Shown here: positions 7,860-36,990 of the stretch, one piece after another | Layout: the number at the start of each line of letters is the position of its first letter | How positions within the stretch are numbered: position 1 is the stretch's first letter | Virus record (IMG/VR): IMGVR_UViG_2778261450_000003 | Coordinates: 1 to 38,191 of that record | DNA: 38,191 nucleotides | Source of the DNA: a virus | Lineage: Duplodnaviria > Heunggongvirae > Uroviricota > Caudoviricetes | Strand: one strand, 5' to 3' | Notes under the pieces: generated by a model | The model's input: the letters and a program-made list of their open reading frames with translations, nothing else | The model's database searches: none | What the model was told of the DNA's origin: nothing | Program-made: the position numbers and the translations under genes

Positions 7860-9560
7860 TTAAACACTCGCCACGTTATACCAGGTGCCGTTAATCAGTT
7901 TCTGAAGCGGTCGGTAATACACGCCGCCGATGTTATCTGCCGAATTACTTCCGGTTTCCTGCACATTAATACCAGATAATCCATGGCCTGAAGGTGAGCG
8001 AAATGTCCAGGATATCTGGTTACCTCCCGGGTTGTAATACATTTCGGAACCATAACGCACATCCTGCACGCCGCCTGTTTTGGTCTGGTAACGGGCATCA
8101 AAGTTTCCGTAGTCTGACGGTGTTACCCGCCCGGTAACGTTTACAGGTTTATTACTCTGAATGCTGCCACTCTGAAAACGCAACACATGCACGCTATTGG
8201 CATAAACATCCAGCAGGCCATCACCATTCTGTTTCAGGCCGGTATCGTTATCCCCGAAAGCAATTGAGTTTCCGCCCAGCGCATTCTGAACGCCGATACC
8301 CAACGCACCGTTAACTTTCGAACCACCGCCAACAGATACTGCGTGTAACATGGAAACTTCACCCGTCCGCAAATTAATAGTGAACGGACGCAGGGGGCCA
8401 ATATCGCCATTCTCGCCCTGACCTTCACTGGTAGGGATAAGGTGCAGGCACTCTTCCGAACGACGAAAAATCAGGCCAAAAGCTTCGTTGAAAATCCTCA
8501 GTGCATTAACACCACGGATTTTCAGCTCCCCGGTCATGGTGTCGCCGTCGCGCTCAACAGCGTCTTTTGCTTTATCCATTGCGGCTTTTACTGCCTTTGA
8601 TGTGGCGGCGCGGTCTTCTGCGTCGCTGTCGGTGGAGTTGCTGTACTGCGCAAAGCCTTTCTCCTGCAGTGTTGCGTCCGGATGATGGCGGGATTTTTCG
8701 TGCTCTGCCAGTGCATTGCTTTGTTCTTCGTCGGGTGTCTCCGGGCGCAGGTCCTGTGGGCCGTCTCCTGTCATTTTTGCAAGTGGCGCGACAAAGTGTC
8801 GGAAGCCGTTACCGTCTGTATAAGACGCATGTTCCTGGCGGGCGCAGAACGTAAAAACGGTATTCCATTCGCCAGTAACAAATCCCTGCCAGCTTGCATC
8901 AATCCAGAGGGTATCCCCGACCGCAGCCGGCAGGCTGTAAGGTTCGCGCAGACTGACGCGCAGACCTCCCACATAACCCACGCCGGCGGCAACAGTAGCG
9001 GTACCGTCCTGATAGCTGACCTGAAAACCATCCCCCAGAAAGGCGGCTTCACCGTAGTGATCAAACGCCAGCAGCCGGCGGGCCTCATCCATTCCTGCAA
9101 GGCGTGCAGTGAAATCAATCTGCCAGACATCAGCGCTGACATCGATATGCATTGCTGCGGCTGCGCCGTCAAACTCCATGGAAAATGTGCGGATCAGGTT
9201 GTTTCCCTGCACGCCGTTCGCTGTTTTAATTTTTTGCTGACGAGGTGTGTGTGCAATCATGCAGAGCACGCCGCTTTCTTCGTTCAGCAGACCGATCCAG
9301 TTGTATTCGAAGTCGCCGACTGTCGTGTCCAGAATGATGGAAAACGCGGTCGCGTTCGGCGACAGGAGGCCGTACTGGGTGACCGGCGCACGATACTGAA
9401 TCATGGATTCATCAGGGAGTATCTCATCGCGGGGGATCTCTGCGGATTCATCCTGTCCCGGAATATATGCAAAAACAAATGTATCCGGGCGCGCAGGTTT
9501 TCCACTGATGATTTGATTTGCGCACCAGTGTTCGTACTGTTCAGTAATAATCGTGCTCAT
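7860..9560 (-). CDS. tail fibre protein 1
   Basis: 566-aa ORF, ATGA-coupled to the upstream baseplate gene; shares its N-terminal domain with fibre 2; Gly-rich C-terminal region. Confidence 0.6.
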   Translation of the reverse strand: MSTIITEQYEHWCANQIISGKPARPDTFVFAYIPGQDESAEIPRDEILPDESMIQYRAPVTQYGLLSPNATAFSIILDTTVGDFEYNWIGLLNEESGVLCMIAHTPRQQKIKTANGVQGNNLIRTFSMEFDGAAAAMHIDVSADVWQIDFTARLAGMDEARRLLAFDHYGEAAFLGDGFQVSYQDGTATVAAGVGYVGGLRVSLREPYSLPAAVGDTLWIDASWQGFVTGEWNTVFTFCARQEHASYTDGNGFRHFVAPLAKMTGDGPQDLRPETPDEEQSNALAEHEKSRHHPDATLQEKGFAQYSNSTDSDAEDRAATSKAVKAAMDKAKDAVERDGDTMTGELKIRGVNALRIFNEAFGLIFRRSEECLHLIPTSEGQGENGDIGPLRPFTINLRTGEVSMLHAVSVGGGSKVNGALGIGVQNALGGNSIAFGDNDTGLKQNGDGLLDVYANSVHVLRFQSGSIQSNKPVNVTGRVTPSDYGNFDARYQTKTGGVQDVRYGSEMYYNPGGNQISWTFRSPSGHGLSGINVQETGSNSADNIGGVYYRPLQKLINGTWYNVASV

Positions 9561-23142: not shown

Positions 23143-24169
23143 AAAGAAGAAATATTCTGTGACACACGATGCCGGAGCAAAAAAAACGGCCGGCAAAATG
23201 ACGTTTATTGAATTTGGTGACCCCGAACCGGTTGCTGCATGGGGCTGTTATTACGGCTCGCTGTGGGATGGTTATAACGGCTGGTACACGCCGCCCATTG
23301 AGCGCATGGATCTCGCCATGTTGTCCAATATCGCGCCGTATCACGGCGCAGTATTGCGTGCGCGCGTCAATATGATTATGCAGGGTTTTCGGGGCGGTGG
23401 GGGTATGACACACGCCGCCATGGCGGCAGCAGTGACCAATCTGCTGATATTCGGGGATATGGGGCTGCTTAAAGTACGTAACGGCTTCGGTCGGGTGGTG
23501 CGTCTGCATACGTTGCCTTCTCTGTATCTGCGGCGTAACAACGAGGGAGGCACGGTGATTGTGCAGGCGGCACTGGAAGATCTCGTGTATCCGCCAGGCG
23601 AAGTGGTGTTCGTGGCCATTTATGACCCGCAACAGCAGGTTTACGGTGTCCCGGATTATATCCACGGGATGGAATCCGCCATGCTGAATGTGGATGCCAC
23701 CCGCTTTCGCCGCAAGTATTACAAGAACGGCGCACACCTCGGTTATATCCTGTATTCCACTGACCCGGATATGACTCCCGAGCTCGAGGCGGAATTCCGT
23801 AAAAAGATAGAGGGGTCAAAAGGGGCGGGCAATTTTAAATCCATGTTCATCAATATACCGGGCGGAGACAAAGAAGGGGTTAAGGTGATTCCTATCGGGG
23901 ATTCAGGTACAAAAGATGAGTTCCTGAATATAAAAACCATCAGTGCTCAGGATCAGCTCGTGGCGCACCGTTTTCCACCCGGACTTGCCGGCATCATTCC
24001 CGCAAATACGGCCGGGCTTGGCGACCCACTTAAATCCCGCGAGGCATATTACAGGGATGAGGTTATTCCGATGCGCCGTCTGATTATGGAGGGGATCAAC
24101 AGTGACCCGGATATCAGGCGACTGGGGGAGGTGAAATTTATTCTTGAATTTAACGAATCCACGGAGTGA
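23135..24169 (+). CDS. portal (capsid vertex) protein, P2 gpQ-like
   Basis: 344-aa ORF, the length of P2 gpQ; overlaps the terminase 3' end by 8 nt. Confidence 0.8.
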   Translation: MSKKKKYSVTHDAGAKKTAGKMTFIEFGDPEPVAAWGCYYGSLWDGYNGWYTPPIERMDLAMLSNIAPYHGAVLRARVNMIMQGFRGGGGMTHAAMAAAVTNLLIFGDMGLLKVRNGFGRVVRLHTLPSLYLRRNNEGGTVIVQAALEDLVYPPGEVVFVAIYDPQQQVYGVPDYIHGMESAMLNVDATRFRRKYYKNGAHLGYILYSTDPDMTPELEAEFRKKIEGSKGAGNFKSMFINIPGGDKEGVKVIPIGDSGTKDEFLNIKTISAQDQLVAHRFPPGLAGIIPANTAGLGDPLKSREAYYRDEVIPMRRLIMEGINSDPDIRRLGEVKFILEFNESTE

Positions 24170-24234
24170 TGTGCGGTATGGGGAAAGAGCGGGTAAAATC
24201 GGCGGCAGTAAAACGCTGTTCCGGGAGGTGGAAA

Positions 24235-24492
24235 ATGCGCAGACAGAAAGCGCGATGTCATTGCTGCGGTGCACATGCAGTGATTGAGAAAACAGCCTGG
24301 AAAACCGATCAGTTTGCTGATGTGTATTACCGTTGCACCCGTCTCGAGTGCGGACATACCTGGGTGATGAATCTGACCTACTCGCACACACTGGTGCCCA
24401 GCGGGCTGGATAACGGTGTGTTAAAGCTGTTGATTGAACGGATGCGCCCGGAAGAAAAACAAATGGCGCTGGAATTGTTGCAAGCGGGTTAG
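24235..24492 (+). CDS. Ogr/Delta-family zinc-finger late-gene transcriptional activator
   Basis: 85 aa from the internal ATG at 24235 with GGGAGGTG RBS; C-x-CC ... C-x4-C pattern (CHCCGAHA ... CTRLEC) matching the Ogr Cys4 finger; the track's longer ORF overlaps the portal gene. Confidence 0.65.
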   Translation: MRRQKARCHCCGAHAVIEKTAWKTDQFADVYYRCTRLECGHTWVMNLTYSHTLVPSGLDNGVLKLLIERMRPEEKQMALELLQAG

Positions 24493-24735
24493 TGTTTTTT
24501 TTGGGGGGTAAGGTAGCGCCAACCTCTCAGCTGGCGTGGTTGGAGTCCCAGTCTAACGACGAAGTGACCAACTAGGCGGTATCAACTTTTTTTGGGAGCC
24601 GCCTCTGAATCCCCAAAATATTCAATACAGTCTGCAAGTGAAAAGTAACGTTTAATGAACTTAAATTCAACGATAACCGTATTTGCGATATGGGTTCACC
24701 TTGACTACAGCGACTGACGCGCTTCGCTTGTCCAA

Positions 24736-24780
24736 CCCGGAACGGGCGCACAAAGAATTTGCGCACCCGTTCCGGGTTTC
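24736..24780. terminator. strong bidirectional intrinsic terminator
   Basis: 11-bp GC-rich stem CCCGGAACGGG / CCCGTTCCGGG with a short loop, followed by TTT on the + strand; lies between the convergent ogr and the 95-aa gene. Confidence 0.6.
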
Positions 24781-24796
24781 ATTCCCTGATATTCAG

Positions 24797-25084
24797 TCAG
24801 CGTGGATAAATTAACTTGAATTTGAGGAAGTTTTGTTTAATCCAGTCTTTAACATTTTCCCTTCCCTGAATACCTGATGGTAAGTGTTCGTGAATCATCC
24901 ATTCAACAATGAGTTTTTCTTTCAGGGTGTATGCCTTAAAGGAATTAAGCATATTTAGTACTTCATAACCTTCTTTGCGGCTAAACCGATGGCGGTCAGC
25001 AGCGGTTTTCGTGGGATCATCTCCTGGCAAAGCAGTCCAACTGTAATCGTCATAAAATAAATCGCTTCTTTTGATATCGGTCAT
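24797..25084 (-). CDS. hypothetical protein, second gene of a two-gene accessory cassette (AT-rich)
   Basis: 95-aa ORF with AAAGGA RBS; markedly AT-rich relative to the prophage; followed by the strong terminator; no family recognised. Confidence 0.5.
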   Translation of the reverse strand: MTDIKRSDLFYDDYSWTALPGDDPTKTAADRHRFSRKEGYEVLNMLNSFKAYTLKEKLIVEWMIHEHLPSGIQGRENVKDWIKQNFLKFKLIYPR

Positions 25085-25149
25085 TTGATTATCCTTTCAG
25101 AAGAACCACCTCGCCAACCATTGTTGAGGTGGTGAAAAAGCAAAAATCG

Positions 25150-25428
25150 TTACGCAGCTTTGAGCAGAGCGCTGCTCATTGCATAGTCGTACCCAAGCAT
25201 GTATGCCTCAAAGGCATCTTTATGTCTGACTGTGCCAGCCTGGCTATATGGAATATTTGCCAGGAAGGAATCATCTTTTGCTTTAGGAATACCGATCATT
25301 GCATGAAGTACACCAAGCTCGTATGCGCAGGCTGCGCAGCGGTGGCGGCCTGTTTGCTCTTGGTTATCGGGAAGGTGTGAGTATTGGGGGTTGTATCGGT
25401 GGGAATTTTTACAAATCTTTATACCCAT
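25150..25428 (-). CDS. hypothetical protein, first gene of the two-gene accessory cassette
   Basis: 92-aa ORF with a CAAC motif; preceded by a ~170-nt structured leader. Confidence 0.5.
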   Translation of the reverse strand: MGIKICKNSHRYNPQYSHLPDNQEQTGRHRCAACAYELGVLHAMIGIPKAKDDSFLANIPYSQAGTVRHKDAFEAYMLGYDYAMSSALLKAA

Positions 25429-25599
25429 ATTTGATTTACCTCAATAAAATGAGGTGTTCACCTTTACATGGGCACACACAGAAAATACGATTCTGGCGAG
25501 CTCAAGAGGTAGATGACACCTCGTTTTCTTTGGCGCCCCGATAGTTACCGCTATTGGGGCGTTTTCCTATGCATGACACACAAACAAAGTGGTCATATC

Positions 25600-25640
25600 G
25601 TGATCGATCCTACAAAATCCCACACAGCTGTCAAGGGTAT
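25600..25640 (-). promoter_or_regulatory. candidate sigma70 promoter (TTGACA-N16-TAGGAT) for the two-gene cassette
   Basis: Perfect -35 hexamer on the - strand at 25629-25634 with a TAGGAT -10-like hexamer 16 bp downstream; nested palindromes lie just upstream at 25651-25693. Confidence 0.3.
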
Positions 25641-25737
25641 TGATCGTTTTAATCGATAGATAAATCAATATCTATCTGTTTAACAGATCGATTATTAAGG
25701 TAAGCATGGGGGCACCCCATAAAAGGTGTTTTATAGG

Positions 25738-26052
25738 TTATTCTGGAAAAAACGCCTGAATATTCTTTTTCACCTGCTGCATAGGGTGGGCGCTGGCTGT
25801 TGCTGGTTGCGCCTGTTTTTCAGGCTGCACTGGCAGCGATGTCATCCGTATTTCGTCTTCTGACCATTCTGCCAGCGAATACGCCAGTGCGGGGGCACGT
25901 TTTATGAGTGCCAGTCCAGCCAGAAAGGCCGCGCGTTGTGCGCGGCTGCGTTCCGAGGCTGGCAGGCTGTCGAGGTAATTGCACGCCTCCTGTTCACTCT
26001 TGACGGCGGCTGGCTTCAGATAGAAACTTATCCGTCTGGTTGGTGACGTCAT
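25738..26052 (-). CDS. parR: ParR/StbB-like centromere-binding partition protein
   Basis: 104 aa from the ATG at 26052 with AAGGAG RBS, 4 nt after the parM stop; DSLPASERSRAQRAAFLAGLAL closely resembles the R1 ParR region DSIPQGERSRLNRAALTAGLAL (from memory). Confidence 0.7.
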   Translation of the reverse strand: MTSPTRRISFYLKPAAVKSEQEACNYLDSLPASERSRAQRAAFLAGLALIKRAPALAYSLAEWSEDEIRMTSLPVQPEKQAQPATASAHPMQQVKKNIQAFFPE

Positions 26053-26056
26053 TGGT

Positions 26057-27016
26057 TTACTCCTTGTCCATTGCGTACAGCCCATTAACCAGAGCAAACT
26101 GTGGCACCCCGTCCGCGATGAAAGTCGCATTAACTCCGCAGGCTTCGCGGATAGCGGGTGCCACAATATCAGCCCCTCCACCGACAACCATCACCCGTCC
26201 GTACCCCGAAAAACCAGCCAGCGCACGGATCACACGTTGTTTCAGTGTTTCTTCCTTTTCATGAATAACCGCCATCAGGTTGGCGTAATGCGCGTCATTG
26301 TGAATGTGCTGGCGCAGCCAGGCTTCATCGTGGCGATGTTCGATAATGGTATTGGCGATGTGGTGACTGGTGCGCATACCGTTAGTGGCCATCACCGACA
26401 GTACAGCATCGGCCATCAGAGAAACGCCTACGTGTGGATCGCAAAACACCTGGCTGATACCTGCCAGTTGTCCCTGAACCTTTGCCACATCCAGCGTGGT
26501 TCCGCCTAAATCAACAATAAGCAGGGATTCAAACGGACTCATGTCAGCCAGCGCCTTAAAGCCTGCCGGAATGGATTCAGGCATAACCCGCACGTTACGG
26601 ATAGTGAATGCTTTGCCGTTCTGGTACTCCACCGGGCGCATGACGTTCGCTTTTTTTCGGTTGATGTTTGCCATGTCCGGCTGTGCGTTTGTGTCGAAAT
26701 ATTCGCTCAGTGGCAGGGTGACAACCACATCCACTTCCTGTGGCGTGATGCCTGATTTGACCAGTGCGTGATGAATGGCAATGACATTCACATCACTGTA
26801 CTGGTATTGCGTGTCGGTCGTCTGGACAAAGCGATCGCTGACCGGATCAAAACCATAGCGCACGCTATCAAGCATGTAGTTCGCGGGCTGCATGCCACCG
26901 AACGGCGCAGACCATTCCGACTTGAAGCTGTTCGGGCTGATGGCGTTGCGGCGTTCGCTGTTCTCAGTCCATGCCAGCTTGATGTTGGTTGAGCCGTCGT
27001 CGATGTAAATTTTCAT
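26057..27016 (-). CDS. parM: ParM/StbA actin-like plasmid segregation ATPase
   Basis: 319-aa ORF with AAGGAA RBS; N-terminus MKIYIDDGSTNIKLAW...ISPNSFK...YQYSDVNVIAIHHAL matches remembered R1 ParM (MLVFIDDGSTNIKLQW...ISPNSFK...WQYSDVNVVAVHHAL). Confidence 0.85.
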   Translation of the reverse strand: MKIYIDDGSTNIKLAWTENSERRNAISPNSFKSEWSAPFGGMQPANYMLDSVRYGFDPVSDRFVQTTDTQYQYSDVNVIAIHHALVKSGITPQEVDVVVTLPLSEYFDTNAQPDMANINRKKANVMRPVEYQNGKAFTIRNVRVMPESIPAGFKALADMSPFESLLIVDLGGTTLDVAKVQGQLAGISQVFCDPHVGVSLMADAVLSVMATNGMRTSHHIANTIIEHRHDEAWLRQHIHNDAHYANLMAVIHEKEETLKQRVIRALAGFSGYGRVMVVGGGADIVAPAIREACGVNATFIADGVPQFALVNGLYAMDKE

Positions 27017-27051
27017 GTCGATTTTCCTTATGTTGATTAATTAATCGTTTA

Positions 27052-27142
27052 CGGGATTCTGAAATCCCGCTTTTGCCTGTTTTGTGCGCGCTTCATATAT
27101 CGCGGCACGTTTTTTGCTCATTTACGGGATTTGTGAATCCCG
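27052..27142. promoter_or_regulatory. two copies of the palindrome CGGGATT-N4-AATCCCG flanking the parM promoter (candidate parC operator/centromere)
   Basis: Copies at 27052-27069 and 27125-27142, each preceded by TTTACG, centres 73 bp apart; the second lies in the 3' end of the replication gene. Confidence 0.4.
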
Positions 27143-29915
27143 TTTCTGTCTGTTTTTTGTTTCCACTGGTCAGGCCACCCCGCAGCAGGTCTGCTTTGCG
27201 GCGGGCGCGTTCAGTGGTTTCACTGATTCTCTGTGCGTGCTCTGCGTCGCGGATGGCGCGCAGCATGTCAGAAAGCACGGTAACGGGTGTTTTCATGGTG
27301 TTCTGGTCCTGCTGAAGTGTGGATGCCAGGCGTGCGGCGGCTTCAGGGTCTGATGCCCCCAGCTGTTCCAGATAGCTGGCGACCGGGTTATGGCGGATCT
27401 CCGTGCTGCTTACGCCGTGATTACGGCTCAGGCGTTGCCAGAGCTGCGTGATTCGGCTGTCCGGGCGGGTATCCGGTTTGCGTACAATTTCAAATCCCTG
27501 CGGTGCAATGATGCTGCCGTCAACGTACAGACTGCCGCCCCGTAACAGGTGCTGCATCTGCTGTTCACCAATATGCAGGCCGAGAGATTCGGCAGACTCC
27601 CGCCATTCTTTAGCGAGTAACTCGTGGTTATCAGGCAAAGGCTGTGGCTGTTTGCGGCTCTGTGTCCAGTTCTGCATTTCATCACTGCTGTTTTTGGCCT
27701 GTTTGTCACGCAGCGAACGCATCAGCGCCCGGCGTTCGTGCCGTTTCAGTGAGCGCATCCATTCATTCACTTCAATGCCGTCAGGAAGCTGCGGCCACGG
27801 TGCTGGCCGTTCTTCCGGCTGTTCTGTCCCGTTGTTGTCCGTTTCCTGTACACGGGGACAGTTATTGCCACGAGTCCAAGGGGCGGCAGGGCCGCCCTGA
27901 AGGTCAAAACCATTTTCGCGGGCGCTGTCTTCCGCTTCCGGTTTACGTCTTACCAGCTTCCAGTTATCCGGATGTGTGCACACACGGGAAGACTCCCCGA
28001 TGAGCGGCGACCAGATCCCGTAAATCTGTACGCTCTGTTCGCCGTAATCGTTCAGCTCATCTGCGAGGTCGTAGGCCGTGCGAATCAGGTAGTCTTTGCG
28101 TGGAACAAGTACGCCGCCCTGTTTCTCTATGTAGGAGGCAAAACACCCGGCATCAGCGGCAGCGAGTACCGCATCCATTGCGTCATTTTCCAGACGTTGT
28201 GGTCCCTGTGGGTTGCGGGCCATCTGACAGGCAAGGCGGCGCAGTTCACGCCACACCTGACGGGAGGGGATGCCAAAGAACTGGAACTGGCGGACCCGGT
28301 GAAGGCGCGCCCAGCCGATGGCGCGCTCCACGCTTTCTGCCATCGTCTTTCCTGATTCGTCGTCGATGCGCGGTTTGCCTGTTTTCGGGTCAATGCCATC
28401 CACGGCGTGGCTGTCCAGGTTCTTTCCGATGTAGGTGGCGATGTAGCTGGTCGGCGTACCTTTCGAACCGTCGACGTACTCTGCCTTAAAGCGCGGAGTT
28501 ATGTCATTACCCAGCTCGTGGCGGTCTTCGCGAATGGCAATATCACGGGTGATGTCCACGATGCTGTCGATTTCTTCAGGATGTGCAAAGACCATCATGT
28601 GCCAGTGCACGGTGCCGTCATGGTGAGGCTCCACCGTGCGAATGCCATACCAGCGCAGACCGTCGCGGTTCAGTTTTTTGCGGACCGCCTTAAAAAACGT
28701 GTTAACCAGGTAATCGCTGGAATCGCGCATGGTGGCCCCGTTCCATTTGGGGTTAGGGTGACCGTTCTCCGTTGTTGCGTGGTACTTCGAAGGGGTGGTG
28801 ACAGTCAGAAACACCGCTCTGTCGCCACGGGCTTCGGCCAGAAGCTCCAGCCCCTTCATGGTGGCCATCATTTCTGCCTTACGGTGAACCGGGTTACTTA
28901 CTCCCGCGTAATACACTGTCTCGAGATCAATCGTGAACCCGTCTTCGTTTTCCAGCATGAAACTTTTCAGGAAATCGCGTGTTTTCTCGCGCTGTGCGCG
29001 AAACTCGCTTAACGCGTTCTGGCTCAGATAGGGCGATGTTTTTCTGGAAACCAGACAGGCGGCGCGGAGTTGTTCTTCTCTCCACTCGCAACGTAACAGC
29101 CACAGTTTGCGTTTCCACCATTCCGCACAGGTCAGGCGAAGGATTGCTCCCGGCAGCAGCTCCGTGTCCGGTTCGTTCCTCCGGTCTTTGTCTGTTGTCA
29201 GTGCTTCATAATGCGGAGGCATGGCGTGCAGGTGTAACGCCATGCGGGCCAGCATCTGATACGCCTTCAGCGTTACATCCATGGTCAGCTCGCCATCAGT
29301 CGCACCAAAGCCATCGCAGAGCTTTTCGAAGGTGCTGCTGAACATCGCCGCCGTCATGGTGGCCAGCGTCTGTATCTGGTGTTTGTTGAGCTGCGGCAGG
29401 TAAAGCAAATCGTCCAGGCGTTCGCGTCCGGCAAGGGAGCGATAACCCGGTGTCAGCCAGCGTCCGTCAGTGCGATCCAGACGTTCGAATATTTTGCGCA
29501 GGGTTCCGCGTGCATAGCGTTCCGCCTGCCAGCTCTTTTTGCCTTTCCGGCGATCGGCTTCCTGTTTTTTGCGCAGGAAGGAGAGGTGGCGAATAAGCGG
29601 ATCGCGCAGATAGGATGGCAGCAGGCGCAGCGAGGCCATGGCTTCATCCACCGCGCCGCGTGCCTGTTTTCTGGCTTCTCTGGCCAGTGTGATGGTTTTG
29701 TCCTGTTTTTCCTGTGCGTCCAGGCTTTTATTAATCAGGTTGCCCAGCGGTGTGGCGGAGAACGCCGCATCAGCTATTTCCTGGCGGCGCTCGTTCTCTT
29801 CCCGGTAGGCATCCAGCCAGGAGGAAAGCGCGGATTCAGGAGCGGGGATCCCCGTTCCTTCACGCCCCACTGCGTGGCGCGGTTGTTGCCAGTCCCTGAT
29901 GTACTCTGCCGTCAT
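27093..29915 (-). CDS. replication initiation endonuclease, P2 gpA-like
   Basis: 940-aa ORF, the largest early gene; contains HHDGTVHWHMMVF, resembling HUH rolling-circle endonuclease metal-binding motifs; position upstream of the late region as in P2. Confidence 0.75.
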   Translation of the reverse strand: MTAEYIRDWQQPRHAVGREGTGIPAPESALSSWLDAYREENERRQEIADAAFSATPLGNLINKSLDAQEKQDKTITLAREARKQARGAVDEAMASLRLLPSYLRDPLIRHLSFLRKKQEADRRKGKKSWQAERYARGTLRKIFERLDRTDGRWLTPGYRSLAGRERLDDLLYLPQLNKHQIQTLATMTAAMFSSTFEKLCDGFGATDGELTMDVTLKAYQMLARMALHLHAMPPHYEALTTDKDRRNEPDTELLPGAILRLTCAEWWKRKLWLLRCEWREEQLRAACLVSRKTSPYLSQNALSEFRAQREKTRDFLKSFMLENEDGFTIDLETVYYAGVSNPVHRKAEMMATMKGLELLAEARGDRAVFLTVTTPSKYHATTENGHPNPKWNGATMRDSSDYLVNTFFKAVRKKLNRDGLRWYGIRTVEPHHDGTVHWHMMVFAHPEEIDSIVDITRDIAIREDRHELGNDITPRFKAEYVDGSKGTPTSYIATYIGKNLDSHAVDGIDPKTGKPRIDDESGKTMAESVERAIGWARLHRVRQFQFFGIPSRQVWRELRRLACQMARNPQGPQRLENDAMDAVLAAADAGCFASYIEKQGGVLVPRKDYLIRTAYDLADELNDYGEQSVQIYGIWSPLIGESSRVCTHPDNWKLVRRKPEAEDSARENGFDLQGGPAAPWTRGNNCPRVQETDNNGTEQPEERPAPWPQLPDGIEVNEWMRSLKRHERRALMRSLRDKQAKNSSDEMQNWTQSRKQPQPLPDNHELLAKEWRESAESLGLHIGEQQMQHLLRGGSLYVDGSIIAPQGFEIVRKPDTRPDSRITQLWQRLSRNHGVSSTEIRHNPVASYLEQLGASDPEAAARLASTLQQDQNTMKTPVTVLSDMLRAIRDAEHAQRISETTERARRKADLLRGGLTSGNKKQTETGFTNPVNEQKTCRDI

Positions 29916-29921
29916 AGTGAT

Positions 29922-30287
29922 TTACTTCGTCATGCCATTCAGGGTGTCGCGGCAGACGGCAGCCAGCCGCTGAATCTCCAGCGCAGTGTCTTCTGTGTCG
30001 GCATGGTGGTGTGTGATGCGGATGCTGTCGGCAATCACATCGACGATCGCAGAGGATGGGCGCTGGTAAATGCCAATAACGGACGGGGTGCCACCTTCAA
30101 TGCGGTAAAGCCTGTAATTTCCCTCGTGGCTGTCAATCATGTAGCGACCATCAATAACAATCTTTCCGTCAGCGAGCTGCGGTACAGGCAGGGATTTCAG
30201 GTACATGTCATAACGTTCACGCACGCGAACGGCAAGATCACGCTCTGTGTTGAGCAGGTATTCAAGAAAGTCGTTGGCGAGAATCAT
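29922..30287 (-). CDS. hypothetical early protein
   Basis: 121-aa ORF with AAGAGGA RBS immediately upstream of the replication gene. Confidence 0.45.
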   Translation of the reverse strand: MILANDFLEYLLNTERDLAVRVRERYDMYLKSLPVPQLADGKIVIDGRYMIDSHEGNYRLYRIEGGTPSVIGIYQRPSSAIVDVIADSIRITHHHADTEDTALEIQRLAAVCRDTLNGMTK

Positions 30288-30359
30288 TGCGGCAATCCTC
30301 TTGTTACAGATGTGCGAAGGCCTCCCGCCGCAAGGTGCAGGAAAGGCCCGGAACAGGAA

Positions 30360-30590
30360 TTAATGGAGTTTGTTTTGCTGCTGGATGAGATCCTGAAGAG
30401 ACAGGAGGTCTTCCGCCAGATAGCTGAATACAGCGGCGCAGTAGTCGGCTGAAATAGTACTGTTGAGCCTGTGCAATGCGTTGGATTGCATGATAAAGGC
30501 GATGTGTGCAGCGCGGGTGAGTCTGCGGTCGATTTCAGTCTGGATGTGGCGACGCTCCGCGATAGCGCGGTGCTGTTTGCGGTTTGCCAT
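30360..30590 (-). CDS. hypothetical small early protein
   Basis: 76-aa ORF with AGAGG RBS. Confidence 0.4.
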   Translation of the reverse strand: MANRKQHRAIAERRHIQTEIDRRLTRAAHIAFIMQSNALHRLNSTISADYCAAVFSYLAEDLLSLQDLIQQQNKLH

Positions 30591-30957
30591 GATATGTGGC
30601 CTCTTGTAGTAAGTTGTGAAAACTCACCATCCAGAGCTGCGAAACTGTGGGTGGCGAGACGTACGAGGTTCGCAGTACCGGCTACAAGAGATCCCGGCCC
30701 GACCGAAGTCGGCCCCGTACGCCCCGCCATAATTCTGACGCGAAAAAAACGTGGCAATACAGTACACACAAAAAAACCGCTGGCGCGGTTGTGCGCTCTT
30801 GTAGTCAGCAGGCTGCGAAACCCGGCACCCGTTTTATGAGGTGCAGCGAAAATGTAACCTGACTGATTGCGGCATGGCAAGCGGTTTTTTTGTGAGAACG
30901 GCATACTAAAAAATCCTGATACTGCTCCGGCCAGCGGTTTGCACTGGCCGGGTGTCA

Positions 30958-31788
30958 TTACTTCACGGGAACGAACGGAACAGCGGTGTTACTGGTCATG
31001 TATTGCGGCAGCGTGCCGTTCCATTTGTTGATCGCTTCCAGCTCCATAACGCCGGGATTCTGGCGCAGAGCTTCGCCGCGTAAACGAATGGCGTCGGCTT
31101 CAGCCTGGGCTTTTGTGCGAATGGCATCGGCCTGTCCGGCAGCTTCTGCGCGCAACATGTTGGCTTCTGCTTCGCGTTGCTTGACTTCCTGTTCGCGTTG
31201 CAGGGTTTTCTGGTTTGCCGTGACTTTGGCGTTAATGCTGTCGATAACGGTTGGCGGATATTCCGGTTTACCGACATAAGAGAGGCTCATGACCTGAATA
31301 CCGATGGGGGTCATCTCTTCCTGAATATCTTTAAGTGCTGAATCCAGCAGTTCAGACTTACCACCGTCGATAAACTTATCGGTGGTCATTTTGCTGGCCA
31401 GTCGGTTGAGTGCATCGGCGATCTTCTGGCGCAGGTCAGTGTCGGTAATGTCGTCCACGCCTTTGCGGTAGGTCTGAAACACCGTGGTAACTTTGGATGG
31501 ATCAACTTTGTAGGCCACGCCGATGTGATAGCCGATGGTTGTGCCGTCACTCATCTGGAAGTTGAACGGCTCATCGTAAGTCTTCATTTGTTTGAAGGTC
31601 GGGAAGATGTAAACCTCTGTATTCCAGCCTGTCCAGTAGCGGCCAACGCCAACCACTTCACCGACGCCTTTGTCGTCGCCCAGTTTGTTGACTTTGATGC
31701 CCACATTACCTGGCTCAACGCGATCGCAACCAACCAGCAGGATGGCGGCAAAAAGCGGGAGAATCTGAAAGAGTTTGAATTTCTTCAT
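30958..31788 (-). CDS. SPFH/band-7 (stomatin-prohibitin-like) lipoprotein
   Basis: 276-aa ORF; N-terminal signal with lipobox LLVGC; central SPFH-like region and Ala/Glu/Arg-rich coiled-coil C-terminus typical of band-7 proteins. Confidence 0.7.
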   Translation of the reverse strand: MKKFKLFQILPLFAAILLVGCDRVEPGNVGIKVNKLGDDKGVGEVVGVGRYWTGWNTEVYIFPTFKQMKTYDEPFNFQMSDGTTIGYHIGVAYKVDPSKVTTVFQTYRKGVDDITDTDLRQKIADALNRLASKMTTDKFIDGGKSELLDSALKDIQEEMTPIGIQVMSLSYVGKPEYPPTVIDSINAKVTANQKTLQREQEVKQREAEANMLRAEAAGQADAIRTKAQAEADAIRLRGEALRQNPGVMELEAINKWNGTLPQYMTSNTAVPFVPVK

Positions 31789-35898: not shown

Positions 35899-35967
35899 CG
35901 CTTTATAAACATTACATTTTCACCATTTGTTTTCAGGATGGTGAACTGACTGTTGGAGGGACTTCTT

Positions 35968-36990
35968 GTGTCTGTTAAGAAGCTCGAAGATGGTCGCTAT
36001 GAAGTGGATGTAAGGCCGCGCGGGCGCGACGGAAAGCGTATCCGGCGGAAGTTTGAGAGAAAAGCGGAGGCGCATGCTTTTGAACGAAGCATCATTGCAA
36101 AGTATCAGAACCATGACTACCTGAGTCGTCCTGCAGACAAGCGGCGACTGAGTGAGTTTATCGCTTTGTGGTGGCAGCTCATTGGACGTAATAAGAACTA
36201 CGCTAATCGTAGGCTTAGTGCGTTAAGCTGTATTTGCCAGGATATGGGGGATCCCATGATTTACCAGATTGATGGTCGATGCCTTATCGAATACCGGGCA
36301 TATAGATTGGGGCAAGGTATAAAGGCTTCAACGATTAACCATGATCTTTTTGCTCTGAGCGGTATGTTTAAGGCGATGGCTGAGATCGATGAGTTTCATG
36401 GGGATAATCCTGTAGAGGCAATATCTGCTTTAAAAGAGCCAAAAACTGAGATGTCTTACTTTACCGAGTCTGAGGTTAAGCGGTTATTATCCTTATGCAC
36501 TGGTGATTATTTCCGGATTGCTGTTCTCTTGCTTGCAACTGGTGCGAGGTGGGGTGAGGCTTATCAGCTCAAAGCGGAAAATATTGTGGGTGATAGGGTG
36601 ATATTTACGCTTACAAAAAATGGCGAGCGACGAGTTGTTCCCATTTCAGAGGAGGTTGTAAATATTGTAAGGCATCGAGAATCTGGTCGACTTTTTCGTG
36701 TGAGTTACAAAACTTTTCGTTTAAAAATGAAAGAGGCAAAACCTAATTTACCTGATGGTCAGGCAGCTCATGCATTGCGTCATACGTTTGCTACTCATTT
36801 TATGATGAAGGGCGGGAATATAATTGCGTTACAAAGAATTCTTGGTCACGCAGATATTTCACAAACAATGACATATGCTCATTTTGCACCTGATTATTTA
36901 TTGGATGCAGTGAATTATAATCCTCTTGTGGGAATGTCCACATTGTGTCCACACTTTGGAGGCAAAGTGGGGATTTTAGAGGGTAGTTAA
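35968..36990 (+). CDS. int: tyrosine integrase, P2 Int-like
   Basis: About 340 aa from the GTG at 35968 (GGAGGG RBS; the track's ORF starts at TTG 35953); N-terminus KKLEDGRYEVDVRPRGRDGKRIRRKF and C-terminal HALRHTFATHF...LGH...TMTYAH catalytic region match P2 Int. Confidence 0.85.
   Translation: MSVKKLEDGRYEVDVRPRGRDGKRIRRKFERKAEAHAFERSIIAKYQNHDYLSRPADKRRLSEFIALWWQLIGRNKNYANRRLSALSCICQDMGDPMIYQIDGRCLIEYRAYRLGQGIKASTINHDLFALSGMFKAMAEIDEFHGDNPVEAISALKEPKTEMSYFTESEVKRLLSLCTGDYFRIAVLLLATGARWGEAYQLKAENIVGDRVIFTLTKNGERRVVPISEEVVNIVRHRESGRLFRVSYKTFRLKMKEAKPNLPDGQAAHALRHTFATHFMMKGGNIIALQRILGHADISQTMTYAHFAPDYLLDAVNYNPLVGMSTLCPHFGGKVGILEGS

Follow-up and report, generated by a model that had tools for sequence, protein, structure and literature searches.

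A type II ParM/ParR partition cassette with a candidate two-site centromere in an integrated P88-like prophage

Organisation of the par locus

The window analysed here, a stretch of 38,191 nt (IMG/VR record IMGVR_UViG_2778261450_000003), is a chromosomally integrated P2-like prophage of E. coli. On the right flank lies glsA, the gene for glutaminase A (E 4.9e-169), just outside an intact tyrosine integrase gene, and the closest relatives are chromosomal prophages. An initial reading of this DNA, made from the sequence only, had placed a ParM/ParR module with candidate parC sites between the replication gene and a variable accessory region, and our analysis confirmed this arrangement. All of the genes concerned lie on the minus strand. 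The first is gpA (27093–29915), which encodes the P2-type rolling-circle replication endonuclease (Pfam Phage_GPA, E 6.5e-130) and is located directly upstream of parM (26057–27016). The parM stop codon is followed after a gap of 4 nt by the ATG of parR (25738–26052). The variable accessory cassette (24797–25737) lies 3' of parR and contains two small ORFs (PHROG 3941 and 33929, function unassigned), an inverted repeat at 25639–25692 and a promoter-like site at 25634–25607. For most relatives, homology extends exactly as far as the parR stop codon and no farther. Consequently, the palindromes at 25639–25692, which the sequence-only reading had described as following parR, are present but belong to the variable cassette and fall outside the conserved par module. 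The same reading was right about the intact integrase; its hok-like toxin found no counterpart, as an Rfam search returned no match to any hok/sok family.

The ParM and ParR products

The parM gene encodes an intact actin-like partition ATPase of 319 residues that matches the Pfam StbA_N (E 2.6e-80) and ParM C-terminal (E 2e-68) domains as well as PHROG 691 ("partition protein"). As had been proposed, this product is readily recognisable against R1 ParM: it aligns over its full length with the R1 ParM structures (1mwk, E 3.6e-91) and shares ~46% identity with this protein in a MAFFT alignment. The ORF is full length and all the nucleotide-binding motifs (DDGST, PESIPAG, DLGGTTLD and GGGA) are intact here and invariant among phage-borne homologues. 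In a neighbour-joining tree, calculated without support values, the phage-borne ParMs separate from two plasmid clades, and the identity of plasmid ParMs reaches ~52% at most. With the nearest plasmid ParMs only ~50% identical, parM is no recent acquisition.

The parR product is a ribbon-helix-helix type centromere-binding adaptor of 104 residues (PHROG 2515). The adaptor assignment was borne out by a match to Pfam Plasmid_stab_B (PF10784, E 6e-26), accompanied by a weak match to pB171 ParR (2jd3, E 0.004), whereas the start codon had to be corrected to the ATG at 26052 rather than farther upstream, which defines the coordinates and length given here. Conservation among alleles and genera covers the N-terminal TRRISFYLKP as well as the C-terminal tail N-I-x-x-F-F-P; in its more general form, N-[IA]-x-x-[LF]-F-P, this tail also occurs in a genuine IncI-gamma/K1 plasmid ParR. 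The parR alleles fall into deeply diverged classes with a hypervariable linker, whereas parM is nearly uniform (dS ~0.9 versus ~0.13).

Integrated prophage or plasmid

The sequence-only reading had also raised the possibility that the element can be maintained as a plasmid or that the window is itself part of one. The latter is not supported, given glsA on the right flank beyond the intact integrase and the chromosomal location of the nearest relatives. Regarding the former, 5426 complete E. coli genomes contain 1431 copies of parM, of which 1429 are chromosomal and 2 plasmid-borne; together with the glsA-flanked chromosomal position of the window, this leaves the plasmid interpretation largely unsupported. 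Only seven PLSDB records contain parM, the four largest ranging from 272 kb to 1.4 Mb, and a 228-kb IncC plasmid, the only large one examined, contains an IS26-bounded, captured prophage fragment. A single hint of a free form of the phage comes from NZ_CP148288.1, a circular "plasmid" record of 34,461 bp that represents a complete P88-like phage with parMR and int; it is the only whole phage identified as a circular record.

This record, a Plesiomonas relative on a phage-sized contig of 32,167 bp that ends 141 nt past int, and phage D6, which we take to be a P1-like phage-plasmid and which carries a ParM 47.5% identical to that of the window, would be in accordance with a facultative phage-plasmid, in which ParMRC would allow a P2-like phage, instead of integrating, to remain in the cell as a plasmid prophage of low copy number. 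The P2-like phage KS14 is indeed known as a plasmid prophage (PMC3091744). However, the 34.5-kb record has no plasmid replicon type in PLSDB and the only replication gene seen in the phage is the rolling-circle gpA, as opposed to KS14, in which RepB and ParA have taken the place of gpA. An excised or replicating phage also yields a circular phage-sized contig in long-read assembly. Given also the retention of intact integrase and Cox and the overwhelmingly chromosomal distribution of parM, we consider this explanation unlikely.

Candidate parC sites and expression signals

Upstream of parM we identified two exact copies of CGGGATT-N4-AATCCCG with a start-to-start distance of 73 bp, as originally reported. 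The proximal palindrome, CGGGATTCTGAAATCCCG (27052–27069), is located in the 76-nt gap between gpA and parM with its centre 44 nt before the parM ATG. The distal palindrome, CGGGATTTGTGAATCCCG (27125–27142), lies within the last codons of gpA and is therefore not intergenic. Each is embedded in a 42-nt direct repeat (27045–27086 and 27118–27159; 79% identical, spacing 73), and these two units, separated by a 31-nt stretch, make up a parC-like region spanning 27045–27159. The pattern has only these two matches in the 38 kb, even with 2 mismatches permitted, and two matches arose in 0 of 100 shuffles.

The pair was found in all 84 related loci examined and the 73-bp spacing was retained in 82 of these; such variation as there is concentrates in the central 4 nt and not in the arms. 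Plesiomonas and Hafnia phages, with ParM ~60% identical, carry (C)GGG-N10-CCC(G) twice, 72–73 bp apart, and share the ParR beta-strand motif RR(I/V)SFYL with the E. coli phage; in Plesiomonas the distal DNA motif is conserved, whereas the overlapping gpA amino-acid sequence is not. The Serratia/Enterobacter clade features a ParR N-terminus of NRKISFYL and another conserved inverted repeat. Based on this architecture, the palindrome pair is a candidate centromere, although with two sites only it may serve mainly as an operator.

The sequence-only reading had the palindromes flanking the parM promoter, but a sigma-70 consensus scan of the minus strand upstream of parM identified no site, and a lenient hexamer scan returned weak candidates only (at most 8/12 matches). 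One such candidate parM promoter (27036–27063, minus strand, 8/12) would combine a −35 element TTCAGA (27063–27058), a 16-nt spacer and a −10 element ATTAAT (27041–27036), with the −35 falling within the proximal palindrome; E. coli, Plesiomonas and Hafnia all retain the ATTAATCAA element. No terminator was predicted on the coding strand of the gpA–parM interval. As the scans revealed no convincing parM promoter, the timing of expression is a guess.

The palindromes could alternatively represent RNA hairpins or intrinsic terminators, or the operators of another phage regulator, situated near parM by chance. Both receive terminator-like scores on the plus strand, where a G+C stem precedes a T-rich tail, and there are just two of them, one in gpA coding sequence. 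Termination on the plus strand would, however, be antisense to parM and gpA, where no gene is evident, and Plesiomonas keeps only CGGG...CCCG (4-bp stem, 10-nt loop) of each site and yet its pairing and a 72-bp spacing. The near-invariant spacing, the preserved arms and, in the Serratia/Enterobacter clade, a site type that shifts along with the N-terminus of ParR likewise speak against this alternative, which we consider improbable.

Equally doubtful is a lysogen-expressed function directed at other DNA, such as interference with relatives or plasmids bearing matching sites (incompatibility or exclusion) or the positioning of a chromosomal locus. The cassette adjoins the P2 tin/old-type accessory hotspot, a site of exclusion genes; diverged parR classes with a hypervariable linker beside a uniform parM are sometimes seen at specificity determinants; and a weak autoregulated promoter over the proximal palindrome is possible. 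On the other hand, PADLOC returned no match, defence-like partner genes are not conserved with the module, and the palindromes do not co-vary with parR class, since two loci of different class (L001 and L002) have like sites. The DNA-reading N-terminus of ParR is moreover invariant across alleles, so that the divergence of parR does not lie in specificity.

Conservation and selection

P2-like prophages from five genera share the gene order gpA-parM-parR. This synteny was identified in E. coli, Salmonella and E. albertii, in the annotated Citrobacter phage phiSM record, and, with progressively lower ParM identity, in Plesiomonas (62%), Hafnia (61%), Serratia (57%) and Enterobacter (53%). Among complete E. 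coli genomes, ~24% contain parM. A coverage of at least 80% is reached by this gpA type in 1321 E. coli genomes and by parM in 1279, so that genomes with near-full-length parM are ~97% as many as those with this gpA type. Far from being an occasional plasmid insert, the par cassette is almost always present in the P88-like (Xuanwuvirus) lineage and is found also in relatives of four other genera. The lack of a partition system in P2-like phages, a premise of the sequence-only reading, accordingly holds for P2 and 186 and fails for the P88-like lineage and the four other genera.

Both genes are selectively maintained under purifying selection, with dN/dS values of 0.03–0.15 for parM and 0.2–0.47 for parR. 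All 80 IMG/VR loci have a full-length parM, but they are best-scoring matches and thus a sample biased toward intact copies; among the loci in which parR is readable to the stop codon, a single one lacks an intact gene. An internal stop interrupts parM in strain TUM9812, and truncated parM clusters comprise 414, 649 and 555 member sequences, compared with 1308 and 4287 in full-length clusters. Such common inactivated alleles show that a lysogen can do without parM, and overall selection could be weak too. A decaying, plasmid-derived passenger with no phage role, carried beside the accessory-gene hotspot, would fit the adjoining variable region, the frequent internal-stop and frameshift alleles of parM and the published phiSM annotation, in which the cassette appears as no more than a putative "fitness" gene, but is very unlikely in view of the low parM dN/dS, the position and synteny kept over five genera down to 53% ParM identity, the ratio of parM to gpA-type genomes, the conserved cis sites and spacing, and a distance from plasmid ParMs that speaks against recent capture.

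Proposed role of the cassette

We favour, with a probability of roughly 60%, a functional type II ParMRC segregation cassette that belongs to the P88-like backbone and acts on gpA-replicated phage circles, not on a stable plasmid prophage. Because the cassette comes directly after gpA, is read from that strand too and has no terminator predicted ahead of it, we infer that parMR is expressed together with the early/replication operon and that, once the phage has infected a cell or been excised, the cassette acts on the circular, extrachromosomal form of its genome during gpA replication. ParR dimers would bind both 18-bp palindromes via the N-terminal ribbon-helix-helix; the outer CGGG and CCCG are about one helical turn apart and the 73 bp between sites correspond to seven turns. 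The conserved C-terminal tail of ParR is expected to capture the ends of ParM-ATP filaments, and a filament growing between two ParR-parC complexes would push sister DNA circles apart. Monomer circles would in this way be separated and distributed, and their loss avoided in cells still dividing prior to integration or lysis, whereas the cassette would not sustain a stable plasmid prophage. Against the segregation cassette counts that the P2-type lytic cycle is short and high-copy, so that a low-copy partition machine would bring no obvious benefit.

Comparison with known partition systems

The same module is found in Escherichia phage P88, other Xuanwuvirus records and Citrobacter phage phiSM at 93–97% nucleotide identity, with nothing different in kind. 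The genes are already named in RefSeq ("plasmid segregation protein ParM", "plasmid partitioning/stability family protein") and PHROGs, and the window is another member of this P88-like module. The published P88 and phiSM papers include no analysis of the par cassette, and we found no functional study of it in the searchable literature.

R1-type ParMRC (the stbAB/parA locus) shares with the phage cassette the order parC-parM-parR, repeated sites upstream of parM, a full-length ParM at the identity given above with its motifs kept, and a ParR of the same Pfam family with a plasmid-type tail. It serves a theta-replicating low-copy plasmid, whereas the host element here is an integrating phage with rolling-circle replication. 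R1 parC consists of ten 11-bp direct iterons, in contrast to the candidate centromere described here, a pair of 18-bp palindromes with a 73-bp spacing, one of which overlaps the 3' end of gpA, and the phage ParM lineage stands apart from the plasmid clades.

KS14 of Burkholderia, a P2-like plasmid prophage with RepB and a type I ParA and no P2 gpA homologue listed (Lynch et al. 2010, PMC3091744), likewise combines P2-like virion genes with a partition function. It was recovered as a plasmid, whereas the phage described here is integrated, keeps gpA and the tyrosine integrase, and uses ParM/ParR.

SrpMRC of the SXT/R391 ICEs stabilises the element once it is excised and replicates as a rolling circle; its expression is confined to the activation programme of the element, and it is strictly conserved in this family (Carraro et al. 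2015, PMC4489591). As here, an actin-type partition system is carried by a normally integrated, integrase-keeping element with a rolling-circle initiator. SrpM and SrpR are, however, distant from R1 ParM and ParR, SrpR having no recognisable domain, whereas the phage genes are clear members of the ParM and ParR families. The host of SrpMRC is an ICE and not a phage, which normally kills the cell once activated, and its function has been demonstrated, whereas that of the P88-like cassette is predicted.

In prophage CGP3 of C. glutamicum, AlpAC links the circular phage DNA to filaments of an actin-like protein, and efficient replication depends on it; the adaptor of this AlpA/AlpC/alpS system binds sites upstream in its own operon, and alpAC is induced early on prophage excision (Donovan et al. 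2015, PMC4446434). An integrated prophage with an actin-like filament protein and an adaptor (co-transcribed in CGP3) is common to both cases. AlpAC differs in its actin-like family, its Gram-positive host and its gene order (alpAC, compared with parM before parR here), and its need in phage replication is established, whereas the role of the P88-like cassette is a prediction. In our reading, the P88-like cassette may be regarded as analogous to SrpMRC of the SXT/R391 ICEs and AlpAC of prophage CGP3.

An intact parM–parR gene pair of type II

The parM gene (26057–27016, minus strand) encodes a protein of 319 residues that contains both Pfam ParM domains (StbA_N, E = 2.6e-80; ParM C-terminal domain, E = 2e-68). 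The R1 ParM structures align with residues 1–316 (E = 3.6e-91), and R1 ParM shares 46% identity with the window protein in a multiple alignment. The nucleotide-binding motifs DDGST...K13, PESIPAG (which includes the catalytic glutamate), DLGGTTLD and GGGA are all present, and residues D6, D7, G8, S9, T10, K13, E147, D169–D176 and G279–A282 are invariant in all phage-borne ParM homologues aligned. As in type II partition systems, the protein is an actin-fold ATPase with intact phosphate-1, catalytic, phosphate-2 and adenosine motifs. The assignment made in the sequence-only reading, an actin-like ParM ATPase recognisable against R1 ParM, is confirmed by these motifs and by a reading frame that is full-length in the window.

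The adaptor gene parR (25738–26052, minus strand; 104 residues) lies directly 3′ of parM; it starts at 26052, 4 nt past the parM stop codon, and is a little shorter than the mechanical ORF. Its earlier recognition as a ParR adaptor is supported by a match to Pfam Plasmid_stab_B (E = 6e-26) and by a weak match of the N-terminal domain to the pB171 ParR structure 2jd3 (E = 0.004); this domain is predicted to adopt a ribbon-helix-helix fold. PHROGs labels both ParM and ParR as “partition protein”.

Pairwise dN/dS for parM is 0.03–0.15 between close alleles and approximately 0.12–0.15 in comparison with Hafnia and Serratia, and parR evolves faster than parM (0.2–0.47). The parR alleles fall into deeply diverged classes, with dS of approximately 0.9 between classes versus approximately 0.13 in the adjoining parM. 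In the 80 IMG/VR loci compared (L014–L093), most of this divergence falls within a hypervariable linker (around residues 66–95), and both the N-terminal TRRISFYLKP and the C-terminal tail N-I-x-x-(F/L/M)-F-P are invariant. Across alleles and genera the tail reads N-[IA]-x-x-[LF]-F-P, and the ParR of a genuine IncI-gamma/K1 plasmid ends with the same motif (...NNIKNLFPDDE). The tail of R1 ParR has an established role as the ParM-binding peptide, and the conserved tail fits this expected role as a putative ParM-binding peptide. Megablast homology to different relatives breaks within parR at positions 25855, 25907 and 25998.

All 80 IMG/VR loci, a sample biased towards intact copies, carry an intact parM, and parR is disrupted in just one of the loci that are readable to the parR stop codon. 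Inactivated parM alleles are not rare, being common in some E. coli lineages. The copy on the chromosome of E. coli TUM9812 (L094, 2160–3119) is a pseudogene with an internal stop, and the clusters P0006, P0009 and P0018, composed of C-terminally truncated ParM proteins of 188–261 residues, contain 414, 649 and 555 member sequences; the two main full-length clusters have 1308 and 4287 members. The TUM9812 stop and the size of the truncated clusters show that the lysogen clearly does not need parM.

Two palindromes upstream of parM as a candidate centromere

The two palindromes previously described upstream of parM were both verified as exact copies of CGGGATT-N4-AATCCCG, 73 bp apart from start to start. 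The proximal palindrome (27052–27069) is located in the 76-nt gap between gpA and parM, with its centre 44 nt before the parM ATG, and the distal palindrome (27125–27142) lies within the final codons of gpA; each is enclosed by a 42-nt direct repeat (79% identical). The 38 kb contain no other match even at two mismatches, and two copies arose in 0 of 100 dinucleotide-preserving shuffles. We rejected a longer iteron array built from degenerate half-sites, as none was found within one mismatch between 26900 and 27400; the relaxed pattern CGGGA-N8-TCCCG returned just one extra match, which corresponds to the chance level.

Both sites are present in 84 of 84 related loci, with the 73-bp spacing kept in 82, and variation in these loci affects mainly the central four bases and one inner arm position, leaving CGGGA...TCC(C/T)G in place. 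The Plesiomonas sites (GCGGGACAACAAAAACCCG and GCGGGACAACACTAACCCA) are 72 bp apart and those of Hafnia (tGGGATTGAGGAAACCCa and CGGGTTCATTAAATCCCa) approximately 72 bp apart; the feature common to E. coli, Plesiomonas and Hafnia is (C)GGG-N10-CCC(G), which occurs as two copies separated by seven helical turns. This DNA feature is kept even though the amino acids that gpA encodes across the distal site are completely different. ParR proteins of these three lineages have the beta-strand motif RR(I/V)SFYL in common. In the Serratia/Enterobacter clade, the N-terminal ParR motif is NRKISFYL (NRKISFYLKP) and a different conserved element is found upstream of parM, a candidate parC composed of inverted arms GGGAACGAAATAGAAAAAT 26–30 nt apart. 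The change of site coincides with the change of the ParR N-terminus, which indicates that the type of site tracks the type of adaptor. Taken together, these observations point to the palindromes as the probable cis site of the par module and a candidate centromere. This second type of candidate parC is positioned at 7887–7978 in L009 and 6884–6950 in L010 (Serratia and Enterobacter prophages), and Serratia also has two copies of ATTTCATGACC. The E. coli palindromes score as terminator-like on the plus strand; this was dismissed as the explanation of their conservation because the Plesiomonas sites form only a 4-bp stem.

The gene upstream of the module, gpA (27093–29915, minus strand), encodes a 940-residue P2-type replication endonuclease (Pfam Phage_GPA, E = 6.5e-130). 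parM lies directly 3′ of gpA on the same strand, and no terminator is predicted between them on the coding strand. The palindromes had been thought to flank the parM promoter; however, a promoter between the two sites could not be demonstrated in our scans. A strong sigma-70 promoter in this interval was rejected, given that the scans were negative and that the GATATAT element of the spacer is not conserved in the Salmonella allele. Only weak candidates were found, including one with its −35 element at 27063–27058, inside the proximal palindrome, and its −10 element at 27041–27036; an ATTAAT element at this −10 position is conserved in three genera. From the shared strand, the lack of a predicted terminator and the weakness of the promoters, we infer that parMR would be expressed with the early/replication operon, possibly with autoregulation by ParR.

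The module is a lineage-wide feature of P2-like prophages

The par region is 93–97% identical to that of Escherichia phage P88, other Xuanwuvirus records and Citrobacter phage phiSM, and these records already name the genes ParM or partition. We identified parM in approximately 24% of complete E. coli genomes (1292 of 5426; nearly full length in 1279), including ST131, O157:H7, O121 and O111 strains. The matching gpA type reaches a coverage of at least 80% in 1321 complete E. coli genomes. These numbers indicate that parM and its gpA type almost always occur together.

There are thousands of plasmid ParM proteins, none of them more than approximately 52% identical to the window ParM. The next-closest homologues, at 53–62% identity, are from Plesiomonas, Hafnia, Serratia and Enterobacter, and in all four genera the gene is part of a P2-like prophage with the order gpA–(0 to 2 small ORFs)–parM–parR–variable genes–(ogr)–portal. 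Phage-borne ParMs are placed apart from two plasmid clades in a neighbour-joining tree calculated without support values. Recent capture from a plasmid was rejected on the basis of the approximately 52% ceiling and because the PLSDB matches at 95–99% are solely records containing the phage. Two chromosomal homologues of approximately 49% identity turned out to lie outside phages: in Dickeya the gene is accompanied by TraG and TraU in an ICE-like setting, and the one in Mangrovibacter belongs to an integrated plasmid with Rep3 and ParAB. A single-protein pattern scan of genome contigs returned only three near-identical loci, and the distant relatives were found through protein search and contig look-ups.

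The module resides on the chromosome

The right flank of the window contains the integrase gene (35953–36990) followed by a glutaminase A gene (glsA, E = 4.9e-169). A chromosomal E. coli prophage with a 97.2% identical par region has matching gene sizes and a P2-like set composed of Cox, repressor, integrase, portal, terminase, scaffold, capsid and Ogr. The window prophage itself shows the Pfam Phage_GPA and Ogr_Delta families, an integrase and the P2 gene order, in accordance with P2-like temperate phages (Peduoviridae, P88-like/Xuanwuvirus). The window is a chromosomally integrated prophage and not a plasmid; the suggestion that it is itself part of a plasmid is contradicted by the chromosomal glsA flank.

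In the 5426 complete E. coli genomes, 1429 of the 1431 parM copies are chromosomal and two are on plasmids. PLSDB contains seven records of the module only, the four largest of which range from 272 kb to 1.4 Mb. NZ_CP148288.1 of E. coli Z1323PEC0009, a 34,461-bp circle corresponding to the whole phage, was deposited as a plasmid and has no PLSDB replicon type. The Plesiomonas contig WEKF01000002.1 (assembly GCA_009183595.1; 32,167 bp) likewise comprises a whole par-bearing P2-like phage and ends 141 nt past int; each of the two may represent an episome, a circle sequenced after excision or during replication, or a contig broken at att in the assembly. The one large plasmid that was inspected, pC-Ec2-KPC (NZ_MK439959.1), carries an IS26-bounded, rearranged P88-like fragment including gpA–parM–parR. 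This 228-kb conjugative IncC KPC plasmid gains a second, phage-derived ParMRC.

Two properties of phage-plasmids are therefore missing: extrachromosomal upkeep, given the glsA flank, the ratio of 1429 to 2 copies and a single phage-sized circle, and a plasmid-type initiator, the sole replication gene being the P2-type rolling-circle gpA. The sequence-only reading had taken the module, together with the integrase and the hok-like toxin, as a sign that the element can also be kept as a plasmid, which these data do not bear out. A stable plasmid prophage comparable to the P2-like Burkholderia phage KS14 would account for the single 34.5-kb circle and the phage-sized Plesiomonas contig, but we assign it a low probability because parM is distributed on chromosomes, integrase and Cox are retained and a plasmid-type initiator is missing. 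The hok-like toxin reported on the left flank was not recovered either: Rfam searches at gathering thresholds identified no hok/sok in the window; the only families recovered, C4 antisense RNA and isrK, map to other parts of it.

Neighbouring features of the prophage

A variable accessory cassette (24500–25737) lies between parR and ogr, at the position of the P2 tin/old hotspot, and in most E. coli relatives homology stops exactly at the parR stop codon. Two small minus-strand ORFs in this region (25150–25428 and 24797–25084) match the function-unknown families PHROG 3941 and PHROG 33929, with no Pfam or PADLOC match. The cassette also contains a plus-strand terminator-like hairpin (25534–25561) followed by TTTT, and an inverted repeat with 24-nt arms (25639–25692) just upstream of a promoter-like site (25634–25607, minus strand). 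The palindromes earlier noted after parR are thus present, but they belong to this cassette and not to the module; as it is absent from most relatives, they were rejected as a second centromere.

The Ogr/Delta-type zinc-finger activator gene (24166–24492, plus strand) directly follows the portal gene, as it also does in the Plesiomonas and Hafnia relatives; in P2 it is located beside the attachment site. Upstream of gpA, an SPFH/HflC-HflK-like lipoprotein gene (30958–31788, minus strand; 276 residues; PHROG 200, weak NCBIfam hflC/hflK) is unusual cargo that might modulate FtsH-dependent lysis–lysogeny control. The matches to C4 antisense RNA (30647–30734, minus strand, 81 bits) and to the Hfq-binding RNA isrK (30770–30844, minus strand, 67 bits), both at the Rfam gathering level, lie side by side within a mechanical 224-residue ORF (30284–30958) whose product matches PHROG transcription-regulator families. 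This pair may constitute an RNA-based immunity or antirepressor control element of the early region.

The tail region (1–21200) corresponds to that of locus L002, with DUF2586, DUF2590, tape-measure and chaperone genes, and is unlike the classical P2-type tail genes of the P88-like NZ_CP148288.1. This difference identifies the phage as a mosaic, in which a P88-like early/par region is combined with a tail module of another type. The left edge of the window cuts through a serine O-acetyltransferase-like gene (1–573).

Discussion

At the level of sequence, the prophage carries an intact ParM, an intact ParR whose DNA-reading and tail segments are conserved, and conserved paired upstream sites; all are under purifying selection and firmly linked to gpA, the gene with which this integrating phage replicates. 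Partition systems are usually taken as a plasmid signature. Here, what appears to be a complete ParMRC belongs to the conserved backbone of a phage lineage that integrates, and the presence of ParM/ParR alone is an unfit criterion for calling a contig a plasmid or phage-plasmid.

An exclusion or incompatibility role expressed in the lysogen could be proposed from the diversity of parR, the one observation in its favour; however, this diversity is localised to the linker and not to the DNA-reading segment. Identity as a defence system was rejected, as no PADLOC defence model matched ParM, ParR or the neighbouring small ORFs. A functionless passenger cassette conflicts with both the selection and the synteny data.

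We favour a role for parMR on the circular form of the phage. ParR would bind both palindromes, whose half-site centres, 11 bp apart, suit a pair of ribbon-helix-helix dimers, and the two ParR complexes would be positioned on the same DNA face. ParM-ATP filaments would then be captured by the ParR tails and push sister DNA molecules apart, with the extrachromosomal phage circle as the substrate. In P2-type phages, gpA-initiated rolling circles give rise to monomeric double-stranded circles. We also considered that P88-like phages pass through a facultative carrier state, in which the gpA replicon and the minimal two-site ParMRC maintain a low-copy circle that segregates in dividing cells before integration or after non-lytic excision, and regard this as rather unlikely. 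If true, P88-like phages would be integrase-bearing phage-plasmids of a new type, and ParM filaments would serve to organise phage replication by rolling circle in a Gram-negative host; demonstration of the carrier state or of such a filament role would raise the interest of the module. The candidate centromere is very small and tractable, with two palindromes within 91 bp in E. coli phages that are inducible and platable (P88 and phiSM).

The gene names were already known from RefSeq, GenBank phage records and PHROGs. In the published description of P88 the par genes go unmentioned (PMC5285337), the phiSM paper lists one par gene merely as a putative fitness factor (PMC6456863), and no study analysing ParM/ParR of P2-like phages emerged from our targeted full-text literature searches. 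The present analysis contributes four points: conservation of the cassette throughout the lineage, its counted chromosomal rather than plasmid location, a conserved minimal two-site centromere candidate with its apparent co-variation with ParR, and a proposed connection to the precedents of SrpMRC and AlpAC.

Among known systems, KS14 is a true P2-like plasmid prophage that has RepB instead of a gpA-type initiator; it carries RepB and ParA with no gpA homologue listed (PMC3091744), whereas the window phage has gpA and ParM/ParR. SrpMRC of SXT/R391 ICEs lowers the loss of the excised, rolling-circle-replicating element, and features a four-repeat centromere and expression on activation only (PMC4489591). 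In prophage CGP3, AlpAC anchors the circular phage DNA to actin-like filaments, and efficient CGP3 replication depends on it (PMC4446434). The P88-like phages present the same setting, an integrating element with conserved parMR, an integrase and a rolling-circle gpA, and by analogy parMR would act on the circular form. The pay-off may be either SrpMRC-like or AlpAC-like, both being compatible with the sequence. If the module works as proposed, the principle seen in SXT/R391 ICEs and CGP3, by which an integrating element actively segregates its short-lived circular form or positions it, would extend to the large P2-like family.
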